DNA of 32,000 bases, taken from assembly GCF_018336915.1 (NCBI RefSeq), contig NZ_CP064923.1:2010001-2042000 (forward strand), given 5' to 3'. Shown here piece after piece: positions 6,363 through 30,472 of this stretch. The DNA is from Acaryochloris marina S15 (GTDB taxonomy: Bacteria > Cyanobacteriota > Cyanobacteriia > Thermosynechococcales > Thermosynechococcaceae). A program made the position numbers and the translations under genes. Under the pieces are notes generated by a model. The model did not search any database, was not told the DNA's origin, and was given only the letters and a program-made list of their open reading frames with translations. The first letter of the stretch is position 1, and every line of letters starts with the position of its first letter.

Positions 6363-7901
6363 ATGCCCTTATCCGTAAGTGTACGAGACATTCAGACCTT
6401 AATCCTGTCCTATCACCCCGTCATTGTGATTGAAACCTTAGAGGAAGATCGAGTCCAAACCCTTCTTAAAAAAGCGACAGAGGAAATGTCTATTCCGATG
6501 TTTGAATGGAGCATTGCTCAGGGACTGATTCGTTCTCCTGGCACCTTTGATGCGCCTTGGGTGAATGAATATGCTCCCCCAGGCACCCTCAAACCTGCCG
6601 CCATTGGGAATACCGCCGAACCCTTAGCCGTCCTTAAACATGTCCAGGATATGTCCATTAAGGCTTTGTTCTGGCTTAAGGATTTTGGCAAACACTTTGA
6701 AGATCCAGAAACAGCCCGCCACTTTCGCGAAGCGGCTCAGCTCTTTTCCCAAAAGCGCTCTGCCTTTGTTCTTACCGGGGACAATATCGAGTTGCCCAGG
6801 GAAATTGAGCATGATGCTGTGGTGTATGACCTGAAGCTACCTGATCGCGATGAACTCTCTCGGACCGTCAAAGAGGTGGTGCGGACCATGAGGCACAAAC
6901 ACCGCACCATCGTCGAATTAGAAGATCAGGATATGCAGGCCCTGGTTCAAGCCATGACGGGTATGACCTTGAAACAAGCCCGACAAGTGCTGGCCTATGC
7001 GGCCCTCGATGATGGCAAATTGACCACAGATGATGTGGAACGCATTCTCCACCGAAAAGCCCAACTGATCCGGGCTGGTGGGGTGCTTGATTATCTTCCT
7101 GTCGAAGGCAATCGTGTGGAATGGGGTGGGTTTGCCAATCTCAAGAACTGGCTGGGGCGAGCCAAGGTCGGATTTAGTCCCGCTGCTAAAGCCTTGAATC
7201 TGACGCCGCCGAAGGGCATTTTGATTGTGGGGATTCAAGGATGTGGCAAATCTCTAGCAGCTAAAGCGATTGCTAGAGAATGGAAAATGCCATTACTGAA
7301 GTTAGATGCAGGTCGTCTCTACGATAAATTTGTGGGGGAATCTGAGAAGAATTTTCGCAAAGCCATCTCTTTAGCAGAATCCATGGCTCCTGCTGTGCTT
7401 TGGATTGACGAAATTGAAAAAAGTTTAGGGGCAACTGGGTCTGATTCGGATGGTGGTCTGAGTCGGCGAATGTTTGGGTTCTTCCTGACCTGGATGCAGG
7501 AAAAGTCCCAAGAGGTTTTTGTGGTGGCCACTGCCAACGATATTTCCCAAATTCCACCAGAGCTTTTACGTAAAGGCCGTTTTGATGAGATTTTTTATGT
7601 GGATTTACCGGATTTGCAAGAACGAGGGGCAATTTTTCGCATTCATCTAATGCTGCGTAAACAGGATCCCAGCCATTTTGATATGCCCACCCTATTGCAG
7701 GCATCGGAAGGCTATAGTGGTGCTGAAATAGAGCAGGCCGTCGTGGCAGCCCTTTATCGTGCTCTCTATGTAGAAAAACCGTTGGATACTGAGTTACTGG
7801 TTCAGGAAATTCAAGGCATGATTCCGCTATCTGTTTCGCGACAAGAACATTTGAAGCAGCTTCGCAACCTAGCTCAAGATCGATTTATGAGTGCGAGATA
7901 A
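6363..7901 (+). CDS. ycf46: AAA+ ATPase, Ycf46-like
   Basis: 512 aa. N-terminal [16 protein letters not shown]... domain. C-terminal AAA module with Walker [16 protein letters not shown], Walker [10 protein letters not shown], sensor [30 protein letters not shown]. The overall layout matches the cyanobacterial/plastid Ycf46 family as I recall it. Confidence 0.75.
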
Positions 7902-7988
7902 CCCTTGAATATCAGTTTGACCTTCCCTTTTGCAGGTCTGATAGCCCCCATCTGAACCTTTTCTCTATCGTTTTCGTCTGTTGGATGT

Positions 7989-9446
7989 ATGCATAAATCC
8001 CTTCACCTCTCCACCATCCTTTTAGGTACTACAGCTGCATTAGTCTGGGTTCAGCCGCAAGCTCAAGCATTGAGTGCAGCAGAAGTGAGTAAGCTGGCCA
8101 AGAACGTCACAGTTCGGATTAGCAGTCCTGGCGGTTTAGGATCAGGGGTGATTGTCAAAAAAGAAGGTGATACCTACACTGTTGCGACTGCGGCCCATGT
8201 GGTTGACCTACCCAATACTTACGACATTCAAACCCCTGATCAGCAAACTCATACCGTCACGTCTTCCAGCATCCAAAAATTTCAAGGGGTGGATCTTGCG
8301 GTGGTTCAATTTGCCAGTTCCCAGACCTATGCAGTCGCCACAATGGGTAATGTCAATGATGCGCCAGAAGGCACCCCTATTTACGTTGCAGGTTTTCCAG
8401 CACTCACCCTGGCTCTGACGGAGTCGATCTATAACTTCACAGAAGGGAAAGTGACGGCTAATGCGACTAAGCCCCTGGCCGATGGATATGCACTGGTTTA
8501 TTCCAACAGCACCTTACCTGGCATGAGTGGTGGTCCTGTCTTGGATAAGCAAGGGCGATTGGTGGCCATTCACGGCCGGGCAGACACCGCAACGATCCGA
8601 CCCCAAGATGAAGCAACCAATCCCGACATTTATATCAAAACCGGCTTCAACCTAGGGATTCCTATCAATACTTTTCTCAATTCATTGCCCTCAACCCTCA
8701 CATCCCTAAATCTAGGGACCCTTGATCCGCGGCCAAATGCGAATGAACCTTCTGCTGCAGATTTCTATTTACAAGGGGGGGATAAACTTAAGAGAAAAGA
8801 TTATAAGGGGGCGATTGCTGATTTCTCCCAAGCCATTGAGCTAGACCCTGAATATGTGGAAGCTTACTATGGTCGTAGTCTTGGCCACTATCGGCAGCGA
8901 GATTCTTTCAAGGCGATTGAAGACCTGTCTCAGGCGATCAAGCTAAATCCAGATTATACCCAAGCCTTTGTACAGCGGGGAGTGGTGAAAGCCAATTCTA
9001 GAGACACTCCGGGGTCGCTCAATGATTACCGGAAAGCCTTAACCCTCAGTCCCTTGGATGCCACAATTCTATATCGGCAAGCCTTGTCAGAAATACAGCT
9101 TTGGCGATACCAGGGAGCAATGTTTGCTCTGAACCGTGCGATCGCATTCAATCCCCGATTGGCGGAAGCGAAGGTGATGAAAGGTGCCGTTCAGGTTTTG
9201 CAGGATAAGTCAAACGGAAGCAACCTGGCAACCTATGCCCAAACAATTGCCGAGCTGGAGCGAATTAGACAACTGCCTTTTAACTCAGCAATCACCGATA
9301 TTCATAAGGGGCTACTCAGCAGCTTGAAAGGCGATAAGCAAACGGGCCTCCGCCTACTACAAACTGCTGGGTTTAAAGCTCAACGGGAAGGGGATAATCA
9401 GTTGAATGAGATTATCCGTGCCATGATCTTAAAGCTGTCGCGGTGA
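7989..9446 (+). CDS. Secreted trypsin-like (S1) serine protease fused to C-terminal TPR repeats
   Basis: Signal peptide LLGTTAALVWVQPQAQA. Catalytic triad contexts TVATAAHVV (His), GVDLAVVQF (Asp), LPGMSGGPVLD (Ser). The C-terminal half has TPR-like repeats (YKGAIADFSQAIELDPEYVEAYYGRS, AIEDLSQAIKLNPDYTQAFVQRG). Confidence 0.8.
   Translation: MHKSLHLSTILLGTTAALVWVQPQAQALSAAEVSKLAKNVTVRISSPGGLGSGVIVKKEGDTYTVATAAHVVDLPNTYDIQTPDQQTHTVTSSSIQKFQGVDLAVVQFASSQTYAVATMGNVNDAPEGTPIYVAGFPALTLALTESIYNFTEGKVTANATKPLADGYALVYSNSTLPGMSGGPVLDKQGRLVAIHGRADTATIRPQDEATNPDIYIKTGFNLGIPINTFLNSLPSTLTSLNLGTLDPRPNANEPSAADFYLQGGDKLKRKDYKGAIADFSQAIELDPEYVEAYYGRSLGHYRQRDSFKAIEDLSQAIKLNPDYTQAFVQRGVVKANSRDTPGSLNDYRKALTLSPLDATILYRQALSEIQLWRYQGAMFALNRAIAFNPRLAEAKVMKGAVQVLQDKSNGSNLATYAQTIAELERIRQLPFNSAITDIHKGLLSSLKGDKQTGLRLLQTAGFKAQREGDNQLNEIIRAMILKLSR
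9138..9145. repeat. HIP1 palindrome GCGATCGC
   Basis: Exact 8-mer read in sequence. Confidence 0.95.
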
Positions 9447-9988: not shown

Positions 9989-10267
9989 TCATCTAGATGA
10001 GTTCATCGGCAAGGGAGGCTTGTCTAGGGAGCGTTGAGTAGAGTGTTGATAGGTTGATATCCCTTCTGCATAGGCCTCGACGACTTGACCATTGACAGCG
10101 CAAGATACCAGCAAATAATCACAACTGGGACACTCAACCTGGTTAACTAGTCCGTCAGGGCATTTAAGATGAGTCGAATACGAACTCGTAAAATGTAGCC
10201 GCCGTGCAGGGGAGCCACATTGAGGACAGCAAATGGTTTGGGTCGTATTCGTTCTAATTTGACTCAT
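9989..10267 (-). CDS. Small Cys-rich zinc-ribbon protein, function unknown
   Basis: 92 aa with CCPQCG ... KCPDG ... ECPSCD. Two CxxC knuckles about 30 residues apart suggest a zinc ribbon. It sits between trxA and the CBS gene on the same strand. Confidence 0.5.
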   Translation of the reverse strand: MSQIRTNTTQTICCPQCGSPARRLHFTSSYSTHLKCPDGLVNQVECPSCDYLLVSCAVNGQVVEAYAEGISTYQHSTQRSLDKPPLPMNSSR

Positions 10268-10302
10268 ACTTATTTTTGGGTCGATGATGATGGATCGACG
10301 GT

Positions 10303-10623
10303 TTAAAGGTGTTTATCCACGGCGCTGGTAAATTTCTCGTAGGGACTCATGCCTACTAGGGTTTCGACCAGTTCGCCGGATTTGAAAACTAGCACTGCTG
10401 GAATACTGCGAATGCCATATTGCTTGGCAATACCTTTATTCTTGTCAACGTCAACTTTGGTGACTTTAGCCCGACCGTCATAGTCGGTTGCCAATTGGTC
10501 CATCATTGGACTGACTTGTTTGCAAGGCCCGCACCAGGTGGCTGTAAAGTCGACCACAATGATGGACTCATCCTTGAGTAACTGTTCGAACTCGTTGTCT
10601 TGTATGTAAGTTACGGTACTCAT
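10303..10623 (-). CDS. trxA: Thioredoxin
   Basis: 106 aa. Canonical active site FTATWCGPCKQV. Also IAKQYGIRSIPAVLVFKSGE (cis-Pro loop). Confidence 0.92.
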   Translation of the reverse strand: MSTVTYIQDNEFEQLLKDESIIVVDFTATWCGPCKQVSPMMDQLATDYDGRAKVTKVDVDKNKGIAKQYGIRSIPAVLVFKSGELVETLVGMSPYEKFTSAVDKHL

Positions 10624-10637
10624 AATCTTTCCAAAAC

Positions 10638-10937
10638 CTAAAGTAGTGCGTCTTCTTGGTGGGTTTGAATGGTGCAGTCTGATACGGGGTAGGCAACGCA
10701 GGTTAGGACGAATCCAGCATCCATTTGATCGTCATCTAAAAAGGATTGATCGGATTGGTCTACTTTTCCTGAGACGACCTTGCCTGCACAACTAGAGCAA
10801 GCCCCTGATCGACAAGATACAGGTAAATCAAGATCATTCTCTTCTGCTGCGTCAAAAATATACTGATCGTCTTCAACGGCTATCGTGGCGTCGATACCTT
10901 CTGCTTCATTGATCAGTCTGACGTTATAGGTTGCCAT
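10638..10937 (-). CDS. petF: Plant-type [2Fe-2S] ferredoxin
   Basis: 99 aa. [15 protein letters not shown]..., cluster ligands in [14 protein letters not shown]...LTCVAYP, C-terminal CTIQTHQE. Only 14 nt separate it from trxA. Confidence 0.9.
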
Positions 10938-11343
10938 TAAATGAAATCCTTGTAAGTTTGGTATTTAAGGTGAACAACGATCAAGAGGGTTGCTGTCGTA
11001 TCATGAGCCGATAATGGAAACTGCAGCTCATGATGCTGGGGTGCCCATAAGGTTTCACCTAGGTTTTGATTGAAAAAAGGCTCTAACTGCGTCTATACGG
11101 CGAATGGAGGAGTGATGTTACTCAACTTGAATTAAGATGTCACCAGGGGTATTGGCCTTTTGCTTTAGGTGTGAAGCCAAAAAATATTAAGACCTTTTTA
11201 TTCTAAAGCTCATGACCAATAAGGTTTCTGGCGAAAGGCTTGTAACATTTCCTTAGTATACACCTTTAGGGCGTATATTCATTGTCTTATAGAATGTAAA
11301 TCTGTTTCCTTGTAACATTCCTTTTGGATCTATCGAACCCCTT

Positions 11344-11697
11344 ATGTCTGCTGAACAATGGCATGTGAATGAAGTGAGCCGTCGGCTCAATGAAGGCCGC
11401 CAAGCGAAGGCGGCTCAGGGTGGGTATGTAGGATATGGTTCTCCCCCTTTTGGCCAGCTTTCCCATAAAGGGGAGTTGGTTGCTAATCCTCGGGAAACGG
11501 AGATTATTGATCTGATTCGCCGTCACCACAAATCTGGTAAATCTCTACAGCAGATTGCTGATTGGCTGAATCACAATGGTTATCAGACCAAGCGAGGGCG
11601 TTTGTGGAAGCGTATTTCTGTGAAGCGAGTGTTAGATCGGTTGTATGGCAAAACGGCTCGGATTTCAGGAGGGACTAAGCAACGTAAACCAGATTGA
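11344..11697 (+). pseudogene. Serine-recombinase 'recombinase domain' fragment lacking the N-terminal resolvase catalytic domain
   Basis: The 117-aa ORF begins within what looks like the alpha-E/linker region (RRLNEGRQAKAAQGGYVGYGSPPFG) and continues through a recombinase-domain-like stretch (ETEIIDLIRRHHKSGKSLQQIADWLNHNGYQTKRGRLWKRISVKRVLD). No catalytic Ser-containing domain in any upstream frame that I could read. Confidence 0.5.
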
Positions 11698-17416: not shown

Positions 17417-18291
17417 TTAGGACGCTAGGTACAACACATGTTCCATTGCTTCTCTAAGTGAACCGAAGTGCTCTAATTGGTGTCTAATTCGACTTTTAAT
17501 CCAAGCCCACGACCGTTCAATCTTATTCAAATCAGGAGAATAGGGTGGCAAGTACCACACTTCACATCCTGCGGCTTCTACCAGTTGCTCAATTCGCCCT
17601 CCCTTATGGAAGGTGGCATTATCAATGACTAACTTCTGCCCCGGTTTGAGCATCGGTATCAAACAAGTCTCAAGCCAAATTTCAAATACGGTGCGATTGC
17701 AAGCCCCTTCAATCGTGAACGGGGCCATGAGCTGCTTTCCTCTCAAAGCTGCAATCATATTGACTCGTCCACTTCTGCTACCAGACTTTAAAGCATAGAC
17801 CCGCTCACCTTTGGGACCATAGCCATAGTCATACTCATCTCGATTGTCCATCCCTGACTCGTCAGCATAGACGATATCGTCTGGGTCTACTGTTGTTAAC
17901 TTTTGGACGAACTCAGCCCGTTTGTGCTCATCGCGTTGGCGGTAGCCATAGGTCTTTTTTTTCGAGTAAATCCAATATTCTTCAGCGCTCTTGAAATAGT
18001 ACGCTCACTGATTTGCCCCTCCCACAACTCGGCCATCTGAGCTTGGGTTTTATAGCGATGTTCTTGAGCAAAAGCTCGAAACTTGTCCCAGTCTGTGATT
18101 TTGTGGCTATGGCCAAGGTGTTGTCTAGGGATGGGATGAAGATCACCTGTTTCTGCTTTGAGACGTTGCCATAGATTAATGGTGTTACGACTGATATGAA
18201 AGGTGTCACTCGCTTCTGAGGGAGGCATGCCATCAAGTTCAATAGCATCGATCACTTTGCAACGTAAATCGTAGCTGTAGATCAGGGGCAT
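17417..18291 (-). CDS. IS630-family DDE transposase expressed via -1 frameshift (orfA 17896-18291, orfB frame to 17417)
   Basis: N-terminal HTH ORF (…ISRNTINLWQRLKAETG…ISERTISRALKNIGFTRKK). The downstream frame is open from the A-run and reads KTYGYRQRDEHKRAEFVQKLTTVDPDDIVYADESGMDNRDEY… It carries DDE contexts YADESG, LVIDNATFHK, LPPYSPDLNKIERSW. Confidence 0.75.
17955..17962 (-). other. Slippery A8(G) run: putative programmed -1 ribosomal frameshift site of the IS630 transposase
   Basis: The minus strand reads ACT CGA AAA AAA AGA in frame 0. Slipping back one nucleotide gives AAG ACC TAT GGC ..., which joins the HTH and DDE frames without a stop. Confidence 0.6.
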
Positions 18292-18364: not shown

Positions 18365-19786
18365 TCACTCCAATTGACGACGCTTGATCAAAATATAGCC
18401 AGTCCCTAGCCAAAATAAGAGTAGTCCTGTAGTTAATAATAGGATTGCCACCAGGCCAAAACGAGCAATCAGAGCAGGAGCCGCAGCCGTAAAGAGTCCC
18501 CCTCCGACAATAGGTTCAAAAAATAATTGTTTGTAGGCAAACCCTTCAAAGGCACCAGAGCGATTGTCACGATCCACCATGCGCAGTAACAGAATCCCCG
18601 TTGCGGTAACGCCCATCGATTGACCCAAATCTCCAATACCTCGTTCAAACCAATGATCAGGAAAAATCTTAGGGGCGTAGTAAAGGAAAAAGACGATATT
18701 CCAAGTAATACCGACTAGGCTGAGAATCACAAAAACCCCTAAATTACTGCCAAGAACCTGCAATGAGATAGAGACTAAAGCAGTGGCGACCACAACGTCT
18801 AAAGCCAAGCCCGCAATACTCTTCATTAAAGGCTTAATAATCAGTGGACTCAAGTTTAATCGGTTCAAAATCATCTGAACTAAAATCCCCCCAATTAAAG
18901 CCATGGGAAACAAGGGGACATAGATCATGACTTCAACACCGGATCGGCCCCAAGTTGCAGCTTCTAGCCATGTCAATCCATTCAGAATTAGCCAGCCGAA
19001 GACAATGGCTATGCCCACAATGCCAAAGTTGATCGAAAGCGGATCAATCAATAATCCTTGCATCAGTTTGGCTCGACGCTTTCTGATTTCAGGTGTTTCT
19101 GTGGCAGATAGTTCTGGAATATCCTCAACATCCCCAACTCGCCTAGTGACAGATTGAATATGCTCTTGCCGACGTCCCCAACCCGCTAAAGCAGTTCCCG
19201 AAATAATGCCCGAAACAATTCCTACGGTCGCTAACCCCAAGGCCAAGTCACCTCCGTCCTGAAATCCTAGTGTCCCTAGAGTTTTAGCCATTCCACCAGC
19301 AGTGCCATGTCCCCCTTCAAAACCAATCTCGATCAATGCTCCAGAGATAGGATGGGCACCAAATACGGGCTTAAGTACCAATAGTGTGACTAGAAGCCCG
19401 ACAACGTATTGTCCCCAAGCGAGACTCTGACCAAAAACAACTTGCGGGGCAGCTTTGCGCCAAATTTCCTTGAGGCTAGGTATCTGTTCTCCCAAAAAGA
19501 GGGCAGCAAACACGATATTAATGAATAGGCCAGGAGACTGGGACCAAACGGCACGGATCGGTTCTGAGAAAATTCCATCCGCAAAGAAAGCGCCTTTTCC
19601 CAGAATCATCTGAACTAGTGCACCTAATATTTGCGGGCCTAATAGCAACCCTAAGAATCCAGCCACAATCGATTCCGGTAGGTGCAGTTGCTGGAGCCAA
19701 CGAATCTTCTGTTTAAGGTATCGACCTGCTAGTAATAGCAATGATAAAATCACGAATGCAAAAAATACGTCTTTTAGACTAAACAT
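18365..19786 (-). CDS. gltS: Na+/glutamate symporter, GltS (ESS) family
   Basis: 473 aa, polytopic. The N-terminus ILSLLLLAGRYLKQKIRWLQQLHLPESIVAGFLG parallels E. coli GltS LLLGRKL...IPEPVAGG. Conserved loops IEIGFEGGHGTAGG and GQSMGVTATGILLLR. Confidence 0.78.
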   Translation of the reverse strand: MFSLKDVFFAFVILSLLLLAGRYLKQKIRWLQQLHLPESIVAGFLGLLLGPQILGALVQMILGKGAFFADGIFSEPIRAVWSQSPGLFINIVFAALFLGEQIPSLKEIWRKAAPQVVFGQSLAWGQYVVGLLVTLLVLKPVFGAHPISGALIEIGFEGGHGTAGGMAKTLGTLGFQDGGDLALGLATVGIVSGIISGTALAGWGRRQEHIQSVTRRVGDVEDIPELSATETPEIRKRRAKLMQGLLIDPLSINFGIVGIAIVFGWLILNGLTWLEAATWGRSGVEVMIYVPLFPMALIGGILVQMILNRLNLSPLIIKPLMKSIAGLALDVVVATALVSISLQVLGSNLGVFVILSLVGITWNIVFFLYYAPKIFPDHWFERGIGDLGQSMGVTATGILLLRMVDRDNRSGAFEGFAYKQLFFEPIVGGGLFTAAAPALIARFGLVAILLLTTGLLLFWLGTGYILIKRRQLE

Positions 19787-20097: not shown

Positions 20098-22695
20098 TCA
20101 ACATGGTTGGTCGATGGGCACAAACTCTATCTCGAGACTGTTGGAGTTGCACTGCATGGGTTGAATTAAGACTTGAGGAGGATTCTTACGATTACCATTC
20201 GGCTCGAATTCAATATTGCCTGTTGCTCCCCAGGTTTTAAAGTTTGGGGCTGCTAGCGTCGATTGGGTGCCTTGACGGCTAGGCGCTTTTTGTGAACGTA
20301 ATGCTTGAATTAAGACCCGAGTCGCATCATAGGCCAATGCCGTTTGGGCTTGGACTTGCTGACCCCATAGGCTGTCTGCATGGTTCGAAAAGTCTGGGTT
20401 TGGACTTGCGTCGTGGTGCCAAGGGACAGAGACAGCTAAGGATTGTGGCAGCGACTGGGGGAGAACAGATAGCGTCTTTGGATTGTCTAATCCCCATGAA
20501 CCAACAATAGGATGTTGACCTGAATTTTCTTCAATCAGTTTGAATGCATTGTCTTGAGCTAAAGATACCTCACCATCTGGGACGATCAGTAGCGGGATGT
20601 CATTTGGATCTCCATACTGCTTTAGAGCAGCAATGGCTCCAACTGGGTCAAATTCGGAAGAGGCTAAATCTGAGAGTGGATCATTTTGTACAACAGGACT
20701 AATCACTTTCCCCCCTGCCTGTTCATAGATCTCCTTGAAATCATCCCAGAATGAATGAGTAAAAGGACTTTCAGGATTATAAAAAACCTTCACGGTGCGT
20801 TTGTTGATCACCTTGAGAAGATAATTGGCTACGGATCTTGCTTCCACGGAGGTGGTAGGAACAGTTCGAAAAAAATAACCATCCCCCTTGATTGCCAGCT
20901 CCTTGGCTGTTGAACCCGGTGAAATGATGGGTAATTGATGTTGTTTATAGATATCAAGGGTAGGTTTAGACATGTCACTGGCATAGTGACCCACAACTCC
21001 TAAAACTTCTGAAGTTTTTGATAACTTTATTGCTCGGTCTTTAGCATTTTTAATCTTATTGAAGTCATCTGCAATCACAACCTTCAGGCCGATCTTGTTG
21101 CCAATAGGATTGGGGGTGAGAAACGGAATATCCAACTGAGTGGATAGATCTGAAATATTCAAGTTCGCTTCTGTCTGGGCTTGAGCGACTCCCCTAAGCA
21201 GACGATAGGCCAATTTATGGCTAGTCAGTTTTTGGATGTTGGCATCATGCAAGAACGGAACACTTATCGCAATAGTGCGGTATTCAGCGTTCATGTTATC
21301 GAGAATGGCGTTATTGAGATAAATGAGCGTTTCAGGATCATTGCCATCATCTTGCCAGGACTCCAGCAGATTCTGGATACCTTGCGGATAGTTTTTTTGG
21401 GCTATGGCATCAGCAGCATTTCTCTTGTGACCCGGACGAAGACCTAAAACCTCCTCACCCATACTCGTAAAGTCACCGAGTTGTGGGGATGTATCTGTCC
21501 AGACATTGGTTGCCCAGATACTGACCACCATGGCACTAAGACTTAACGCTAAGAGAATCCAATATTTCAATCGGAAACCTAGAAACGAAAATCTTTGTTT
21601 GTTAGGAAGAGATGGCGTCGGCCAAGTGAGGGTTTCCACCCCAGGTTGTTGAAAAATGATGGGCAGCCAAGTCGCGTAGGGAAACTGGTCTTGAATTGAC
21701 TCTAGATCGTGGCGTGCGGAGAGCACCGCATTGTGCACTGAATTGCCTTGGGAAAAATACTGAACGAAGGAGGCTAGAAACTTGTGAGCGACTTGATCGG
21801 GTACAGGCTCTCGCATATAAACAATATAGGGAATGCTGAGACCCGAAAGATGGTGGGCTAGTCCTAAGCCATCACAAGAGTTGAGGATACACACTTGCAA
21901 TCCTCGATGGGCTGCGATGCTGAGGTGATGATGGAGGTCCTTCAGCGTTAAGCTATCGGTTTCATTGATTGAAATCACGCCCTGGTGATCTTCTGTACGA
22001 CTATGTCCAGCAAAAAATAGAAGGTCCCAACCTTTCTCATCCTTCAATGCCCTAGCGACCTGATCTCGACTTGGCTGTTTGAGGAATGTTAGGTCAATAT
22101 CAGGGATGCCCATAAGAATATCTTGCTCATGATCAAGGTCAATATTGTGATCACTTCCAAGAATCGCTAATACTCGAACAGGGATTTCCAGAGCCTTGAG
22201 CTGGGCCTGCCGATATTCTAGAGGGCCTAACGAAATTGGAATTTGAGGATTGCGCTGCACATGGTCCCAGAGCTGCCAAGGTAAACGTTGTAGTTCAGTA
22301 TCATCGGTGCGAATCAGCAGGCGTAAGTCTTTCGATGAGCCATAAAGTTCAGCGAGTTGACGGGTGATTCGCTGAAAGTCGGCTGAATCATGGTTTAACC
22401 ATTGATTCATGAGTTCTTCAAGCTGCTGGGCAGTCTGAACGCACTGTTTTTTAGCGTTTCGCAATTGAGACAGGTGCTGGTCTGACTCCGCCACAAACTC
22501 CAATCGTGTTGCTGAGCCCAAATCTAAATAGTGTTTTTGCCAGTCTGTATAGAGGGCTGCTAGATCTGTTTTAGGGGGGAGTGTTCCTTGCAAAGTGCCT
22601 TCAATGTGGAGGCTATTCTCCTGTCTCCATTCAAGGGTGGCTTGTATTCCCTGAGATAACTGACCTTGGAGTCTCAATATCACAACCCGCATCAT
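20098..22695 (-). CDS. Transmembrane CHAT (caspase-like) protease fused to an extracytoplasmic type-I (LivK/Peripla_BP_6-like) solute-binding domain
   Basis: 865 aa. aa ~120-350 form a CHAT-like domain with dyad contexts LLFFAGHSR (H231, codon 22003-22005) and VCILNSCDGLG (C274, codon 21874-21876). Single TM helix YWILLALSLSAMVVSIWATNVW (aa ~378-399, 21499-21564). aa ~405-865: helical linker (…NDPETLIYLNNA…), then a solute-binding fold (IAISVP…LRGVAQAQ…VVIADDFN…VLGVVGHYASD…PIISPGST…YFFRTVP…TALAYDATRVL…GATGNIEFEPNGNR). Confidence 0.8.
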   Translation of the reverse strand: MMRVVILRLQGQLSQGIQATLEWRQENSLHIEGTLQGTLPPKTDLAALYTDWQKHYLDLGSATRLEFVAESDQHLSQLRNAKKQCVQTAQQLEELMNQWLNHDSADFQRITRQLAELYGSSKDLRLLIRTDDTELQRLPWQLWDHVQRNPQIPISLGPLEYRQAQLKALEIPVRVLAILGSDHNIDLDHEQDILMGIPDIDLTFLKQPSRDQVARALKDEKGWDLLFFAGHSRTEDHQGVISINETDSLTLKDLHHHLSIAAHRGLQVCILNSCDGLGLAHHLSGLSIPYIVYMREPVPDQVAHKFLASFVQYFSQGNSVHNAVLSARHDLESIQDQFPYATWLPIIFQQPGVETLTWPTPSLPNKQRFSFLGFRLKYWILLALSLSAMVVSIWATNVWTDTSPQLGDFTSMGEEVLGLRPGHKRNAADAIAQKNYPQGIQNLLESWQDDGNDPETLIYLNNAILDNMNAEYRTIAISVPFLHDANIQKLTSHKLAYRLLRGVAQAQTEANLNISDLSTQLDIPFLTPNPIGNKIGLKVVIADDFNKIKNAKDRAIKLSKTSEVLGVVGHYASDMSKPTLDIYKQHQLPIISPGSTAKELAIKGDGYFFRTVPTTSVEARSVANYLLKVINKRTVKVFYNPESPFTHSFWDDFKEIYEQAGGKVISPVVQNDPLSDLASSEFDPVGAIAALKQYGDPNDIPLLIVPDGEVSLAQDNAFKLIEENSGQHPIVGSWGLDNPKTLSVLPQSLPQSLAVSVPWHHDASPNPDFSNHADSLWGQQVQAQTALAYDATRVLIQALRSQKAPSRQGTQSTLAAPNFKTWGATGNIEFEPNGNRKNPPQVLIQPMQCNSNSLEIEFVPIDQPC

Positions 22696-22732
22696 TTCAC
22701 CTACACTTTCGTAATGACATCAGTCCCCTTAT

Positions 22733-23698
22733 TCAGATCACAAAATTCTCGGTATGCTTTGCGCTGCCATAGATGAGGTCTACTGAAAAATGTTCGCAAG
22801 GGGCAGCAAGAAAGGGACGAGTCACTAGATCACCTTCGTGGCTGGAGAGGGAAAGCTGTTGGAAGGTTTGTCCATCTTCATCAATAACTGCTAACTGAAG
22901 TGTATCTGGTAATTCTTGCTCAACTACAGGTTCAACCATGATTTCGATTTGGAATTTGCCTTCTTGTTTGGGGGCCAGATACATCACCAGTTCTAAATCA
23001 AGGTCTTGTACTTGCACGATTTTGGAGACGAATACAGGGGCTTCACTATGACTCTTAAGAGGTTCTGGCACATCATCACTTTCAAAACGCATATAGGCTA
23101 AATTCAAATTCTGAGATAACTGCCAATCTGAACAAGTATTTCTAAGCGGTTCTGACAGTGCAGCAAGCTGTTGTCTTTGCTCCTGAGCCCAACTCCATAT
23201 TGTTTGGAGAACAGTCGTTTTGCAGTCAAATAGGAATTGGGGTAATTCGTCAATGGGCTGAATTTGGTGGAGATCAATTTCTCCATCGGAGGAGACAGGT
23301 TGAGAGTTAAAGCCTAAAATTTGAGCTTGCTGATAGTGCTCTTCAAGTCGAACAACGACATAGGCTAGGCGGTCATCTTGAGCATCAATCGGTACTTGAA
23401 CGCTAGTGTCCCCAGCCAGTACTGGGCAGCATTCCAACTTGCCATAGCCCTGAACCATTAGATCTGCACTCTCTAGGAATTGGGAGAGAATGGAGTCATT
23501 ACTATCACTTGCCTCAGGCTTAATTTTAAAAGCCATGCATCGCAGGTAAAAATCGACCGCGTAGAGCGCCAATCTTTTCCGAAATTCTTGCTGATTGTGA
23601 TCCGCATCAAATTTTGGATGGATATGGCTTTGTGCTTTTGCCCAGACTTTAGATGTCAAGGGTACTGGAAAGCCAAAGGAGGGAATTGCAGAGGTCAT
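22733..23698 (-). CDS. DUF1822-like protein (candidate anti-sigma/adaptor)
   Basis: 321-aa acidic soluble protein. The N-terminal segment …EFRKRLALYAVDFYLRCMAF… resembles the conserved N-terminal helix of the cyanobacterial DUF1822 family, which I recall sitting next to CHAT and sigma-like genes. Recollection only, not verified. Confidence 0.5.
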   Translation of the reverse strand: MTSAIPSFGFPVPLTSKVWAKAQSHIHPKFDADHNQQEFRKRLALYAVDFYLRCMAFKIKPEASDSNDSILSQFLESADLMVQGYGKLECCPVLAGDTSVQVPIDAQDDRLAYVVVRLEEHYQQAQILGFNSQPVSSDGEIDLHQIQPIDELPQFLFDCKTTVLQTIWSWAQEQRQQLAALSEPLRNTCSDWQLSQNLNLAYMRFESDDVPEPLKSHSEAPVFVSKIVQVQDLDLELVMYLAPKQEGKFQIEIMVEPVVEQELPDTLQLAVIDEDGQTFQQLSLSSHEGDLVTRPFLAAPCEHFSVDLIYGSAKHTENFVI

Positions 23699-23743
23699 AG
23701 GATGCCGAGACAGTAAATTACAATTTGAGCAGGATAAGTCGCT

Positions 23744-24568
23744 CTAAAGATATCGTTTGAAATAAGGCAATAATTTTCTTAAGGTTCGTTGAAAAAAACT
23801 GGATAAGGTTCTAAATGAGATTTCCGTTTGAGCCGATAAATCTGTCCAGGTTTCTCCTTGGATATGGCGAGAAATAGCTAGGAATTGGAATGTGATATCA
23901 GGATGATTTCTCACCCAGTAGGCAGCAAGTTTTTGCTCTGGATCGGTCTCTAGAAACAACCTGAGATTGTAATAATCCGTTGTTTCAAAATCTTCAATGT
24001 CAACTTTAGAGTCTAATTTTTCTAGCACGAAGGGGTCATAGAAACAGGTGCGTCGAAATTTTTGTTCATTGAGAACATCCAAAAATTTATATTTAAAATT
24101 GCTATTTACCCAAGCCAATATAGGTTTCTCGGGTCGATAGAGTTCAGGGTTATTACAGATATACATCCATGCTTTCTGCTTAGCTTCGTTGTAGAGGTCT
24201 GTAAACATGGAGGTTGGATAGCTGTGAGCATACTTCCTTAAGCGAGTGAGTCGCCCTGACTGCTCAATGATGATAATAAGTCTTGTCAGCCTTTGCTGTC
24301 TGCTGACCGATTCTGATGGATGGCTACGAGCCTCCAATATTAGTTCTAGTAACTGCCGCTCCAGTGAATCCTCATGAGTTCGCCCCGTTAACTGCGCGAG
24401 TTGGGCTAATGCTTGCTGTTGGGGGATCGATCCCGGTAAATGGCTGCGAGCTTGCAAAAGTAATGCTAATAATTGTTGATCCATTGGGATAGAGATATTC
24501 AGACTTTGATGGGAGGCTTCTTGCACACGAAATCTGGGCAATGGTTGGGGGCTAGATTTCGTGTGCAT
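23744..24568 (-). CDS. Divergent sigma-70 family (ECF-like) RNA polymerase sigma factor
   Basis: 274 aa. Region-2-like TDLYNEAKQKAWMYICNNPELYRPEKPILAWVNSNFKYKFLDVLNE. Region-4-like HTH GETWTDLSAQTEISFRTLSSFFQRTLRKLLPYF. The N-terminal helical extension is internally duplicated. Confidence 0.6.
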   Translation of the reverse strand: MHTKSSPQPLPRFRVQEASHQSLNISIPMDQQLLALLLQARSHLPGSIPQQQALAQLAQLTGRTHEDSLERQLLELILEARSHPSESVSRQQRLTRLIIIIEQSGRLTRLRKYAHSYPTSMFTDLYNEAKQKAWMYICNNPELYRPEKPILAWVNSNFKYKFLDVLNEQKFRRTCFYDPFVLEKLDSKVDIEDFETTDYYNLRLFLETDPEQKLAAYWVRNHPDITFQFLAISRHIQGETWTDLSAQTEISFRTLSSFFQRTLRKLLPYFKRYL

Positions 24569-24920
24569 AGGGTCGCGTCCTGCAATTAAGAATATGTATT
24601 AGAGGCCTATGTCAGCCATCGCTGTAAGTTATTAGCTCTCATAAACTAGAACTTCTGCATTTTTTACAAAAGTTCATTAATTGTGTAGAGCAGAAAAAAT
24701 TAAATTCATGCATCAGAAATTATGAACATACCGTACCTGTGCTGTTTTAAGAAATGCACTTTGTACTTAAAGCTGTTTCTAAGTCTCCTGGAAATATGGC
24801 TTATGTTCTGAGTTCATATCGAGGAGTCCAAAGAAAAGAATTTGCAGAAAAATATCTCATATTCCATATCTATATGCAGAAGTGAAAATTCTTTTCAACT
24901 CGATTGATACTGTAAGCATC

Positions 24921-28019: not shown

Positions 28020-28305
28020 ATTTGCTTGAACTATAACGAGTCAATAGATCTCATTCTTGATGTAGTTTGAAGTTGGTTTAGTGCTTTGTCTTAATTGCTT
28101 GAGGTAGATGCTCAATTGTGTGCTTAGTCACTCTTTTGATAGCTAGATTTAATGAGAATAACTCCAGATTTGAAATCGATTTAAGCCCTGAGTTATTGAT
28201 TTTAGAAATTTGCAGAAACTGGAGATCTTTTCCATATAGATCAATAAGCTAGCCGCCTGCTCAATGCAGTGGAACTTACCAATATCAAAAATATGGAGAC
28301 AAATA

Positions 28306-29070
28306 ATGAAGCACTTCCTCTATTGGTTTTTAGGTGATACTGCTGGGCGAACGATTGTAGCTTGGTGGAATTGGTTGTGGGGAAAGCCCCTGGAGTCTGG
28401 AGGGGAAGTGACCCTAGAAGCAGCAAAAGAATCCCTGGCTCAAATGCAGGGTTCTGTCCAAAAATTAACTGAATCAGTCTCTAGAGTGATGGCTGTTTAC
28501 CAGCAGGCTCAGGGGCGATACGAAGTCAAGAAAAAGGAACTTAGCCATGCTGAAGAACAAGCCGGTTTGGCTATGGATCAGGGCAATGATGAGGCAACTA
28601 GAATTGCGATCGCAAGAGTGATCTCCTTAGAGCAACTCCTGCCGCAACTCCAAGAGCGAGTTGAACAAGCCCAGAATATGAAGCGGGAATCCCAACAAAA
28701 ACTGCAAGCAGAGCGAGAAAAGCTAGAGGCTTGCAAATTGGAGATGGGAAATCTCAAAGCTATTTCAGAAATGAATGAAGCGTTGAACCAGGTCATGACC
28801 CTAACGAGTGAATTTGGCCTAGACACTGCTCGATCTCAGTTTGATGATTCTGAGCAAGCCATCAAAAATCGTCATCTCCAGATTAATAGCCAGTTCGAAC
28901 TATCGCGAAATCCCCACGAGCAATTTGAACAACAACTAAACCAGCTCAGCCAAGCTGATGCCATTGAGCAGCGGCTGCAAAAACTGCGTCGACAAAAAGA
29001 GGCGCATTTAAAAGCAGTCCCAGATATTCGGCAAACCCGTCCCGCAAAATCTGAGCCAGAACCAGGATAA
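28306..29070 (+). CDS. PspA/IM30 (Vipp1-like) family coiled-coil protein with an atypical Trp-rich hydrophobic N-terminus
   Basis: ATG 28306 is preceded by GGAG at 28295-28298. Coiled-coil register parallels PspA/Vipp1: LEAAKESLAQMQGSVQKLTESVSRV…, HAEEQAGLAMDQGNDEATRIAIARVISLEQLLPQLQERVEQAQ…, KLEACKLEMGNLKA…, ARSQFDDSEQAIKNR. The N-terminus MKHFLYWFLGDTAGRTIVAWWNWLWG is unusual for the family. Confidence 0.55.
   Translation: MKHFLYWFLGDTAGRTIVAWWNWLWGKPLESGGEVTLEAAKESLAQMQGSVQKLTESVSRVMAVYQQAQGRYEVKKKELSHAEEQAGLAMDQGNDEATRIAIARVISLEQLLPQLQERVEQAQNMKRESQQKLQAEREKLEACKLEMGNLKAISEMNEALNQVMTLTSEFGLDTARSQFDDSEQAIKNRHLQINSQFELSRNPHEQFEQQLNQLSQADAIEQRLQKLRRQKEAHLKAVPDIRQTRPAKSEPEPG
28606..28613. 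repeat. HIP1 palindrome GCGATCGC
   Basis: Exact 8-mer read in sequence. Confidence 0.95.
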
Positions 29071-29116
29071 CGCCACCCATCGCAGAAAAAAATAATGAAA
29101 CTACTTGTAGGTGAAT

Positions 29117-30472
29117 ATGATGCAATTTAAAGCTGCCCTCCCTAAAATCCCCCCTATCCTCTATTTACTAGGCATAGGGGGAGTTATGGGATTTTCTCTT
29201 AATGCTCCCAACTGGCTTGATCGGCAGCCGGATAGTCTAGCGAACCGTCGTAGTCTGGGACAAATCAGCTTTAGTCAAGCCAATGCCAGTGAAGCAGAAC
29301 GCCAAGGTATTCAAGCGTTTGCGGACGGAAACTATAATGCTGCTTCAACTTATTTCACTTTTGCCAGCAAGGCTTCTCCCTCTGATCCCATTCCCCTCAT
29401 CTATGGTGAAAATGCTCGGTGGATAAACCAAAAACCGCTGCATGTAGCTGCCATGGTTCCCCTGGGGAGCAACCGAGAAGTTGCCCTAGAGATGCTACGG
29501 GGGCTAGCTATGGCCCAACAAGACTATAACCGTGGCCCTAATAAGGTGGTCATCGAAATATTTAACGATGAGAATGATCCAGAGTTAGCAAAAACCATTG
29601 CCCAGCAGATTGTTAAAGATGCCAGCATCAAAGCCGTGATTGGTCCGAATGCCTCGAATGCTGCGTTGCATGCAGGTCCTATTTTCAATGCGGCTGGAGT
29701 GGTGATGATTACGCCTACTAGTTTTGCCAACCAGCTGTCGGGGCTTGGAGAATATATTTTTCGAACCACTCCCAAGATTCGGCATCTCACCGATACCCTT
29801 GCCCACTATTCAGTCCACCAAGTTCGGCGAAAAAAGGTAGCAGTTTGTTATGACTCGGATGCCGCCGACAACCTTTCTTTTAAGGATGAGTTTATTGCTG
29901 CTCTACTGGAGCAAGGGGGAACACATATTCCCACAGACTGTGATTTTTCATCTCCTGCCTTTGATGCTAAGGATATGGTCGCAAAGCTGATTAGTGATGG
30001 TGCAGATGCCGTTCTCCTCACCCCTCATATCGATCGATTGGATCGCTTGATAGATCTATCCCGTGAGAACAAATGGCGAATGGTGTTAATGGGTAGCCCC
30101 AGTCTACAAACCCGAAAGATTTTGGAAATTGGTCAGGGAGATTTGAATGGCGTTGTTATTCCTGTTCCCTATCATGCTGAGATGCCAACTGCTCAAGCCT
30201 TTGCCAAGGAGGTCAAAGCTCAGTTTGAGGTTGTTCCCACCTGGCGAACCTTTGCCTCCATGGATGCCCTCAGTGCCATTCTAAAAGTGGGGCAGCATTC
30301 CACCCGTCGACCGCAATTTCAGCAACGATTGCGGTCAGCCAACTTCAAGATGAGTGGATCTGCAGAAGACGTCCGATTCTTGCCCTCCGGTGATCGGATC
30401 GGGAACAGTGTCTTAGTTCAAATTCGCCCCGCAGCCAAGGGATATCACTTTCGCCTGATCAGTTCGAAATAA
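29117..30472 (+). CDS. Membrane-anchored type-I solute-binding protein (LivK/Peripla_BP_6-like), paralogue of the CHAT protein's sensor domain
   Basis: The track starts at GTG 29111; ATGs at 29117 and 29120. N-terminal TM PPILYLLGIGGVMGFSL. Then SLGQ…ERQGIQAFADGNYNAA…DPIPLIYGENA, followed by VAAMVPLGSN…LRGLAMAQQDYN…IEIFNDENDP…AVIGPNASN…VMITPTS…YIFRTTP…WRTFASMDAL…GSAEDVRFLPSGDR. Same order of motifs as aa 405-865 of the CHAT protein. Confidence 0.75.
   Translation: MMQFKAALPKIPPILYLLGIGGVMGFSLNAPNWLDRQPDSLANRRSLGQISFSQANASEAERQGIQAFADGNYNAASTYFTFASKASPSDPIPLIYGENARWINQKPLHVAAMVPLGSNREVALEMLRGLAMAQQDYNRGPNKVVIEIFNDENDPELAKTIAQQIVKDASIKAVIGPNASNAALHAGPIFNAAGVVMITPTSFANQLSGLGEYIFRTTPKIRHLTDTLAHYSVHQVRRKKVAVCYDSDAADNLSFKDEFIAALLEQGGTHIPTDCDFSSPAFDAKDMVAKLISDGADAVLLTPHIDRLDRLIDLSRENKWRMVLMGSPSLQTRKILEIGQGDLNGVVIPVPYHAEMPTAQAFAKEVKAQFEVVPTWRTFASMDALSAILKVGQHSTRRPQFQQRLRSANFKMSGSAEDVRFLPSGDRIGNSVLVQIRPAAKGYHFRLISSK

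Follow-up and report, generated by a model that had tools for sequence, protein, structure and literature searches.

A cyanobacterial operon for a divergent ECF-like sigma factor, DUF1822 and a membrane-bound CHAT protease: a candidate pathway of proteolytic sigma control

Closest described systems and the Acaryochloris marina locus

The analogues established by experiment, each with a sigma factor encoded beside a signal-activated protease and a partner protein, are all linked to CRISPR or CBASS: Craspase-Csx30-CASP-sigma, CalpL-CalpT-CalpS and SAVED-CHAT/PCaspase/PCc-sigma. Closer still are proteins that combine EACC2 and caspase domains with variable sensor C-termini and are encoded beside a sigma factor of the extracytoplasmic function (ECF) type and a DUF1822 protein (Kaur, Iyer, Burroughs, Aravind, eLife 2021, PMC8195603). 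Here we analyse a stretch of 32,000 nt from Acaryochloris marina S15 (contig NZ_CP064923.1, positions 2,010,001 to 2,042,000 of the forward strand; hereafter the window), which carries three such genes, the triad, on its minus strand (Table 1). The locus is a genuine cyanobacterial operon of three genes, for a divergent sigma factor of this type, for DUF1822 and for a CHAT protease of the membrane; with a periplasmic binding protein (PBP) as its sensor, it belongs to a system so far described computationally.

The C-termini listed in that survey comprise small-molecule-binding domains, CHASE2 with transmembrane (TM) helices, kinases, TPR and trypsin-like peptidases; the ECF sigma factor and DUF1822 are the partners of the TRADD-N-independent majority of EACC2-caspase proteins, for which the authors propose stimulus-induced activation of the protease with the sigma factor as the final step (PMC8195603). 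The window shares with their system the CHAT dyad, the EACC2 N-domain, a variable sensor (here TM plus Peripla_BP_6) and the neighbouring DUF1822 and sigma genes. The published account is computational, about one paragraph long, and proposes no DUF1822 cleavage, promoter motif or regulon. A first-pass annotation, made by a model from the sequence, knew of no experimental description of such a pathway and allowed that the three-way association might already be noted in genome-context surveys. In full-text searches of the literature available we found no experimental work on the EACC2-caspase/DUF1822/ECF-sigma system and only two papers that mention DUF1822; the claim of novelty was nevertheless overstated, because the three-way association had already been published (Kaur et al., 2021). 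CHAT and DUF1822 are both absent from the main text of the ECF reclassification paper. What is new here is the quantified linkage of the three genes, a promoter motif with a candidate local regulon, the fold and linker motif of DUF1822, and one case of protease replacement.

The analogy with Craspase, Csx30 and CASP-sigma drawn by the first-pass annotation agrees with the published literature: in both settings a CHAT-family protease is tied to an ECF-like sigma factor via a third protein, and in the Craspase system proteolysis releases the sigma factor. The architecture in the window is EACC2-CHAT-TM-PBP, however, rather than TPR-CHAT, with no CRISPR/Cas models among the PADLOC matches, and the input is a periplasmic ligand-binding domain in place of target RNA. 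The Calp and SAVED-CHAT systems likewise group a sigma factor with a protease that responds to a signal and with a partner protein, but they sense cyclic oligoadenylates in the cytoplasm via SAVED, the Calp protease is Lon-like, and their partner proteins have no detectable relation to DUF1822.

In classical ECF control the membrane anti-sigma RseA is cut by DegS/RseP and then by ClpXP. The window resembles this pathway in running, as we read it, from an extracytoplasmic signal through proteolysis to the release of a putatively autoregulated ECF sigma factor with an AAC-containing -35-like element, and differs from it in that the membrane sensor is itself the protease (caspase-like, not S1/S2P) and the putative anti-sigma factor is a soluble protein. 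PBP-type ectodomains on single-pass receptors are familiar from the natriuretic peptide (ANF) receptors, and the ligand-binding domains of mGluR are comparable. The ectodomain in the window matches ANF_receptor and mGluR7, with a single TM helix coupling it to an intracellular enzyme, although a caspase-like protease here takes the place of the cyclase or G-protein-coupled receptor. HetF (NF045509) also has a CHAT domain, but the match of the window protein to it is weak and partial (E=2e-7), with a score of 29.6 against a cutoff of 1200 bits, so that the protein is no HetF orthologue.

Conservation and make-up of the triad

All three open reading frames (ORFs) are intact, and the co-directional arrangement noted in the first-pass annotation, with intergenic gaps of 45 and 37 nt, was recovered at the same coordinates. 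To quantify its conservation we used a DUF1822-anchored sample of 80 loci, one genome per GTDB species and nearly all from cyanobacteria, in which ORFs were scored with hidden Markov models (HMMs) built in this analysis and counts were limited to loci with enough flank. A sigma-family gene lies directly upstream of DUF1822 on the same strand in 69/72 loci, and a CHAT gene whose N-terminal module matches that of the window protein lies directly downstream in 62 of 74; both neighbours, sigma and EACC2-CHAT, are adjacent in 54/67, which bears out the co-occurrence above chance anticipated earlier. Elsewhere in the ~1.3 Mb of sampled flanks there were almost no sigma-family matches. A second, CHAT-anchored sample was drawn from metagenomes, with PBP-type genes counted where at least 2 kb of upstream sequence was available: DUF1822 is directly upstream of 18/20 CHAT-PBP genes, with the sigma gene as well in 17/20, and for other CHAT subtypes the corresponding figures are 32/39 and 23/39. 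Among five further diverse CHAT-PBP contexts annotated with Pfam, four have DUF1822 directly upstream, three of those with sigma. The three-way linkage thus overwhelmingly exceeds chance.

The closest ortholog, at 83% (locus L167), shows full synteny with the window. Several genomes hold two or more paralogous DUF1822 loci, no fusions among the sigma, DUF1822 and CHAT genes were seen across 170 loci, and a search for CHAT-PBP proteins returned >3,900 matches. A variant locus (L084:970-9552) encodes a 469-aa protein with no Pfam or sigma-HMM match, a 415-aa DUF1822 protein and two tandem CHAT-PBP genes.

The 865-aa product is, as first proposed, a fusion of CHAT, TM and solute-binding parts, with Pfam matches to CHAT and Peripla_BP_6 and one TM helix between them. 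An HMM of its residues 1-150 matches the N-terminus of all 63 CHAT proteins adjoining DUF1822 in the genome sample, CHASE2 types included; there is no public EACC2 model, and the correspondence of this domain to EACC2 was judged from our own HMM together with the description of Kaur et al. The His/Cys dyad, H231 and C274, had been called intact and is invariant in 35 homologues, down to 33% identity. The TM helix is flanked by K/R-rich sequence on the N side and by acidic sequence on the C side, which places the CHAT part in the cytoplasm and the binding-protein part in the periplasm. Pfam assigns residues 534-837 to Peripla_BP_6/ANF_receptor (E=6e-22, with Peripla_BP_6 at aa 537-837); the nearest solved relatives of the sensor are LivJ/LivK-type amino-acid-binding proteins (E=3e-8 to 1e-6) and mGluR ligand-binding domains, including that of mGluR7, and by its type-1 fold relationship the domain passes as a HAAT-family, LivJ-type PBP. 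PADLOC 2.0 models gave no match to the three triad proteins at E<=0.01.

The first ~365 residues are homologous in all 63 CHAT proteins beside DUF1822, and the sensors attached to them vary: CHASE2 is the commonest (~780 aa), and we also found kinase plus CHASE2, N-terminal pentapeptide plus multi-TM, VHL-beta-like and TPR types, with no PBP domain among the 63. A constant protease with a variable sensor is the design expected of a signal-input protein. In one clean non-homologous replacement (locus L018) an intact pair of sigma and DUF1822 genes is followed, in the place of CHAT, by a Trypsin_2+TPR gene overlapping DUF1822 at its end; because a trypsin-like protease stands in for CHAT there, the replacement suggests that proteolysis is the conserved activity of the partner. 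A plasmid of Acaryochloris sp. 'Moss Beach' (pMB01) was considered as a second case of protease displacement and downgraded, its DUF1822 gene being truncated and the locus degraded. There the gene is cut after ~65 codons by an element of ~500 bp (L001:8480-9010), MITE-like in appearance, with terminal inverted repeats GGGGTTGAGCCGAGGTACGAGTAAAAAG ... CTTTTTACTCGTACCTCGGCTCAACCCC. The window itself holds, at 6363-9446 on the plus strand, a gene for an AAA ATPase and, after it, one for a Trypsin_2+TPR protease of the architecture seen in the L018 replacement. The latter product shares 45% identity with the 'serine protease' beside sigma and the DUF1822 remnant on the Moss Beach plasmid.

The 274-aa protein had been described as carrying segments like sigma regions 2 and 4, a claim that stands for the family, whose profile matches ECF sigma factors, while the Pfam sigma models miss the window protein itself. 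Against NCBIfam the latter gives a weak partial match to PRK12536 (E=3e-4, aa 130-180, 20.6 bits against a cutoff of 250), and phmmer and a shallow profile matched nothing among the PDB sequences. An exhaustive profile search places it in a family of ~760 cluster representatives at 50% identity, mostly 205-240 aa long with a median of 224 aa. When 96 diverse members were compared with Pfam, 20 matched Sigma70_r2 and 23 matched Sigma70_r4_2, and the profile of these 96 sequences matches the solved ECF sigma factors SigK (4nqw, E=4.8e-4), RpoE (2q1z) and SigE, with E up to 3e-3 and alignments covering regions 2 and 4. This profile-level homology extends to regions 2 and 4 only, with no region 3 or 1.1. 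Aligned with hhalign to E. coli RpoE, the family reached 93% probability across regions 2.2-4.2, which we treat as a lead; two homologues of the window protein bear the NCBI name 'sigma-70 family'. From the family-level Pfam matches, the profile matches to the PDB and the hhalign comparison we conclude that the 274-aa protein is very probably a divergent ECF-like sigma factor, of a family mostly escaping Pfam.

The window sigma also has a lineage-specific N-terminal extension of ~60 aa that includes an internal duplication; most family members are without any such extension. The duplicated unit is the first helical hairpin (aa 29-68 against aa 69-108, with 14/40 residues shared; window 24245-24484), and the 28-aa leader before it is also kept, with an in-frame indel, in homologues of 86-93%. 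Duplication and leader are confined to the Acaryochloris-like lineage.

The middle gene product had been recognized as a soluble, acidic DUF1822-like protein, and Pfam and composition agree (47 D/E against 22 K/R, no TM segment). Its AlphaFold2 model has a pLDDT of 79 overall (34-sequence alignment) and ~90 in the folded domains, which are an alpha+beta N-domain (aa 10-160) and, at the C-terminus, an Ig/FN3-like beta-sandwich (aa 222-320); between them come a long helix and a linker modelled at low confidence (aa 181-218). The literature label 'TPR protein' used by Kaur et al. was set aside, as the model of an alpha+beta domain plus beta-sandwich contains no TPR solenoid. The linker, at a pLDDT below 50, carries a motif with the consensus L.QWL...F..GWQ..E.LL...LA..FR over 146 DUF1822 sequences, in which the Arg is ~80% conserved; L181 and W192 are invariant residues of the linker. 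We infer that it could be a docking helix that folds on binding and possibly also the segment that is cleaved. A DUF1822 profile found no match among PDB sequences at E<=10, and Foldseek with the model returned generic Ig/FN3 beta-sandwich matches only, with nothing for the N-domain; one of these matches falls in RsgI4, on a sensor domain that is extracellular and does not bind sigma. No solved structure was detectably similar to DUF1822, and the Csx30 complexes are among those compared if they are deposited. On these results DUF1822 falls outside the known anti-sigma classes and has no detectable relative in Csx30 or CalpT.

Promoter motif, proposed wiring and rival explanations

A bipartite, strand-specific element, TTTTGTAAC followed after ~16 nt by GCATAAAA, lies upstream of the sigma genes, also written AAgTTTTGTAAC, ~16 nt, GC(A/G)TAAAA. 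A loose version occurs in 26/118 non-redundant sigma-upstream regions, where the reverse complements used as a control gave 3 and shuffled sequences 0.8, and the strict motif TTGTAA[AC]-N11-16-GC[AG][TG]AAA was found 41 times in all loci as against 1.7 times in block shuffles. Of the strict copies, 20 precede sigma genes and 14 precede neighbouring genes. Among the latter are genes for TPS-domain exoproteins (three), PAS histidine kinases, a DAHP synthase and an MVL lectin, besides small ORFs; as a set they are candidates for a local regulon under the sigma family. Individual sites lie at L124:13241, L134:9803/13838/3640, L078:9064/8216/7336, L076:8775 and L075:5498/4884. An AAC-containing -35 element, a fixed spacer and autoregulation are typical ECF behaviour. 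Such a -35 with fixed spacer, together with apparent autoregulation, lends independent support to the sigma assignment, and the promoter evidence supports a family that behaves like an autoregulated ECF sigma factor with its own putative promoter motif.

In the window the -35-like TTTTGTAA is at 24663-24670 on the minus strand, ~100 nt upstream of the sigma ATG, and the block TTTTGTAA-AAAATGCAGAA is conserved among orthologs merely 55-83% identical. Around the -35-like element, between the divergent sigma and TRAP genes, is an 11-bp imperfect inverted repeat, GAACTTTTGTA...TGCAGAAGTTC, and this block might also serve a different regulator as its operator. A clear -10 element was not seen in this subclade. 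Matches to the -35 half by itself were considered as regulon predictions in PBP-type loci and discarded: the set was mixed (UbiE methyltransferases, response regulators) and is probably noise.

We lean slightly towards a one-way module of three components, in which a ligand would activate the CHAT protease, the protease would cleave DUF1822 and the cleavage would release the sigma factor; the class of ligand, activation by dimerisation, binding between DUF1822 and sigma, and DUF1822 as the substrate are the parts that we infer. In this scheme the 865-aa protein would serve as a single-pass receptor with a small-molecule ligand, probably an amino acid or something related, bound by the LivJ-like domain in the periplasm. 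Ligand-driven reorientation or dimerisation across the TM helix may then activate the cytoplasmic EACC2+CHAT module, by proximity as in caspases; dimerisation is an established mode of activation for ANF-type receptors and caspases. The active protease would cut a cytoplasmic partner, the likeliest substrate being the soluble DUF1822 protein at its conserved flexible linker, and DUF1822 would otherwise keep the ECF-like sigma factor inactive. Once freed, the sigma factor would recruit RNA polymerase at promoters whose -35 element reads TTTTGTAA(C), both that of its own operon, giving positive feedback, and those of nearby genes.

The conserved unit, the intact dyad, the membrane topology and the ECF-like behaviour of the family all fit the pathway proposed by the first-pass annotation, while the lack of likeness between DUF1822 and known anti-sigma factors does not. 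Craspase/Csx30/CASP-sigma and CalpL/CalpT/CalpS count in its favour as experimental precedent for a protease that frees a sigma factor, as do the helix-turn-helix (HTH) and ECF-HTH fusions to DUF1822-type proteins listed by Kaur et al. in their supplementary file 17. Several results weigh against it. The window sigma stays below the Pfam thresholds for Sigma70_r2 and Sigma70_r4/r4_2, giving zero sigma matches, and its AlphaFold2 model is mediocre (pLDDT 68, from a 10-sequence alignment) and yielded no significant Foldseek match. Comparison of DUF1822 with known anti-sigma factors (class I anti-sigma domains and others), Csx30 and CalpT detected no likeness in sequence or fold. About 16% of DUF1822 loci are without an adjacent CHAT gene, orphan CHAT-PBP genes exist (for example Moorena L083), and the window holds only the -35-like half of the motif, sited within the inverted repeat. 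Finally, Kaur et al. prefer autoproteolytic activation over DUF1822 cleavage (PMC8195603).

That preference leads to an alternative that we consider unlikely but well short of negligible, in which the same parts are wired differently: CHAT would cleave itself, thereby releasing or activating the EACC2-caspase part, or would cleave the sigma factor as a pro-sigma, and DUF1822 would be an adaptor, a scaffold or an inhibitor of the protease. Activation by an autopeptidase is what Kaur et al. propose for EACC1/EACC2 systems, and in type III-B the PCaspase cuts the sigma-like PCc-sigma itself while a small protein, PCi, inhibits PCaspase; the ~60-aa extension of the window sigma could likewise be a pro-sequence. 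Most members of the sigma family (median 224 aa) have no such extension, however, and the conserved motif in a flexible linker belongs to DUF1822, not to sigma. If CHAT were instead purely an output, with the sigma factor a mere activator of the operon and the CHAT-PBP protein either a protease on other substrates, tied to the membrane or the periplasm, or a non-catalytic receptor, there would be no proteolytic control of sigma at all. The motif upstream of the sigma genes, which makes the operon probably sigma-dependent, and the orphan CHAT-PBP genes would suit this arrangement, but the near-obligatory DUF1822 and the constant EACC2 module would be left unexplained, and the design of variable sensor and constant protease, together with the replacement of CHAT by another protease, suits a role in input better. 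We regard it as very improbable.

A function in conflict or programmed cell death seems improbable too, if somewhat less so. Here the caspase-like effector would degrade many proteins upon a signal related to an invader or to kin, and the sigma factor would mount a transcriptional response. Kaur et al. group the EACC2-caspase systems with apoptosis- and immunity-like systems of multicellular bacteria, the candidate regulon near CHASE2-type systems has TPS (two-partner secretion) exoproteins and an inverse autotransporter, typical of contact-dependent competition, and several genomes carry multiple paralogous systems. Yet PADLOC matched none of the triad proteins, the sensors are extracytoplasmic binders of small molecules (PBP, CHASE2) rather than sensors of nucleic acids or phage, the locus looks chromosomal and is in stable synteny among transporter and housekeeping genes, and it has no toxin or nuclease partners.

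Should release of sigma through DUF1822 cleavage prove true, it would constitute a widespread mode of transmembrane signalling in cyanobacteria, with a caspase-like protease as the output of the receptor and a sigma factor as the response; it would extend to ordinary environmental sensing a protease-frees-sigma logic known experimentally only from CRISPR-linked systems, and would assign a function to DUF1822. Tentatively, and with the balance tilted against it, we can imagine a large unrecognized class of cyanobacterial receptor-to-caspase systems with interchangeable sensors, in which DUF1822 would be a new soluble anti-sigma cut at its linker and the TTTTGTAAC-type regulon, including secreted and surface proteins, would be self-amplifying. 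That this class might be a CRISPR-independent, housekeeping counterpart of Craspase, and an additional mode of ECF control largely missed by Pfam sigma models, is a speculation we hold with equal reserve. The sigma family is in any case mostly invisible to those models, and the conserved promoter motif offers an immediate experimental handle through reporters and regulon prediction.

Feature coordinates and neighbouring genes

Table 1. Positions in the window of the triad, its domains and sites, and flanking features.
Feature	Position	Strand	Basis or remark
GltS-like Na+/glutamate symporter	18365..19786	-	311 nt downstream of triad
EACC2-CHAT-TM-PBP protein, 865 aa	20098..22695	-	ORF
Periplasmic type-1 solute-binding sensor (Peripla_BP_6/ANF_receptor)	20101..21438	-	Pfam and structure matches
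Single TM helix, aa ~380-400	21496..21558	-	hydropathy maximum 1.93 at aa 380
CHAT/caspase-like protease domain, aa ~160-365	21601..22218	-	Pfam CHAT E=5e-11, aa 195-332
Catalytic Cys274	21874-21876	-	invariant, within NSCDG
Catalytic His231	22003-22005	-	invariant, within FFAGHS
N-terminal constant domain of protease, aa 1-150, matching 'EACC2' of Kaur et al.	22246..22695	-	HMM built in this analysis
DUF1822 protein, 321 aa, soluble, acidic	22733..23698	-	Pfam E=3e-31
Conserved motif in DUF1822 linker, aa ~181-205	23084..23158	-	conservation over 146 sequences
Divergent ECF-like sigma factor (predicted), 274 aa	23744..24568	-	ORF and family profile evidence
Predicted sigma region 2, ~aa 120-170, and region 4, ~aa 198-270	within 23744..24568	-	
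Conserved upstream block GAACTTTTGTAAAAAATGCAGAAGTTC	24649..24675	-	shared by window, L167, L169, L082
PspA/IM30-like gene, then stand-alone PBP	28264..30472	+	sequence comparison

The triad is flanked by transporters and housekeeping genes, with no gRAMP/Cas7-11 partner, and no CRISPR-like repeat arrays were seen in the window; Rfam, tRNA and tandem-repeat scans of its whole length were empty. The GltS-like gene, the divergent TRAP transporter and an HDAC gene are syntenic only in the closest ortholog (83%), and the link of the GltS-like symporter to the triad is uncertain. Between this symporter and a peroxiredoxin gene, an IS630-family transposase is split in two ORFs (HTH_Tnp_IS630, DDE_3; 17417-18291, minus strand), and the insertion is recent, because it is absent from the otherwise syntenic 83% ortholog.

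Of the neighbouring genes only the PspA-like ones recur in other lineages; they lie beside PBP-type triads in three (the window, L169:255-1016 and L104:3618-5728). In the window and in L104 the next gene is a stand-alone PBP belonging to the subfamily of the sensor domain, to which the window copy is 24% identical (E=4e-20), and in L104 a TTTTGTAAC-type element, AAAGTTTTGTAAC, lies 70 nt upstream of the PspA-like gene. The pair of PspA-like and PBP genes may possibly be a target of the triad or an accessory to it, though we would not press the point. A stand-alone PBP paralogue or amino-acid transporter was also considered as a general neighbour, or as a clue to the ligand, and rejected, the PBP being present in just 3/29 PBP-type loci.

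Elsewhere in the window, an ORF-poor region at 9989-11697 contains, by eye from the translations, a Cys-rich ORF of 92 aa and a recombinase-like fragment of 117 aa, along with a thioredoxin-like gene at 10303-10623 and a 2Fe-2S-ferredoxin-like gene at 10638-10937.

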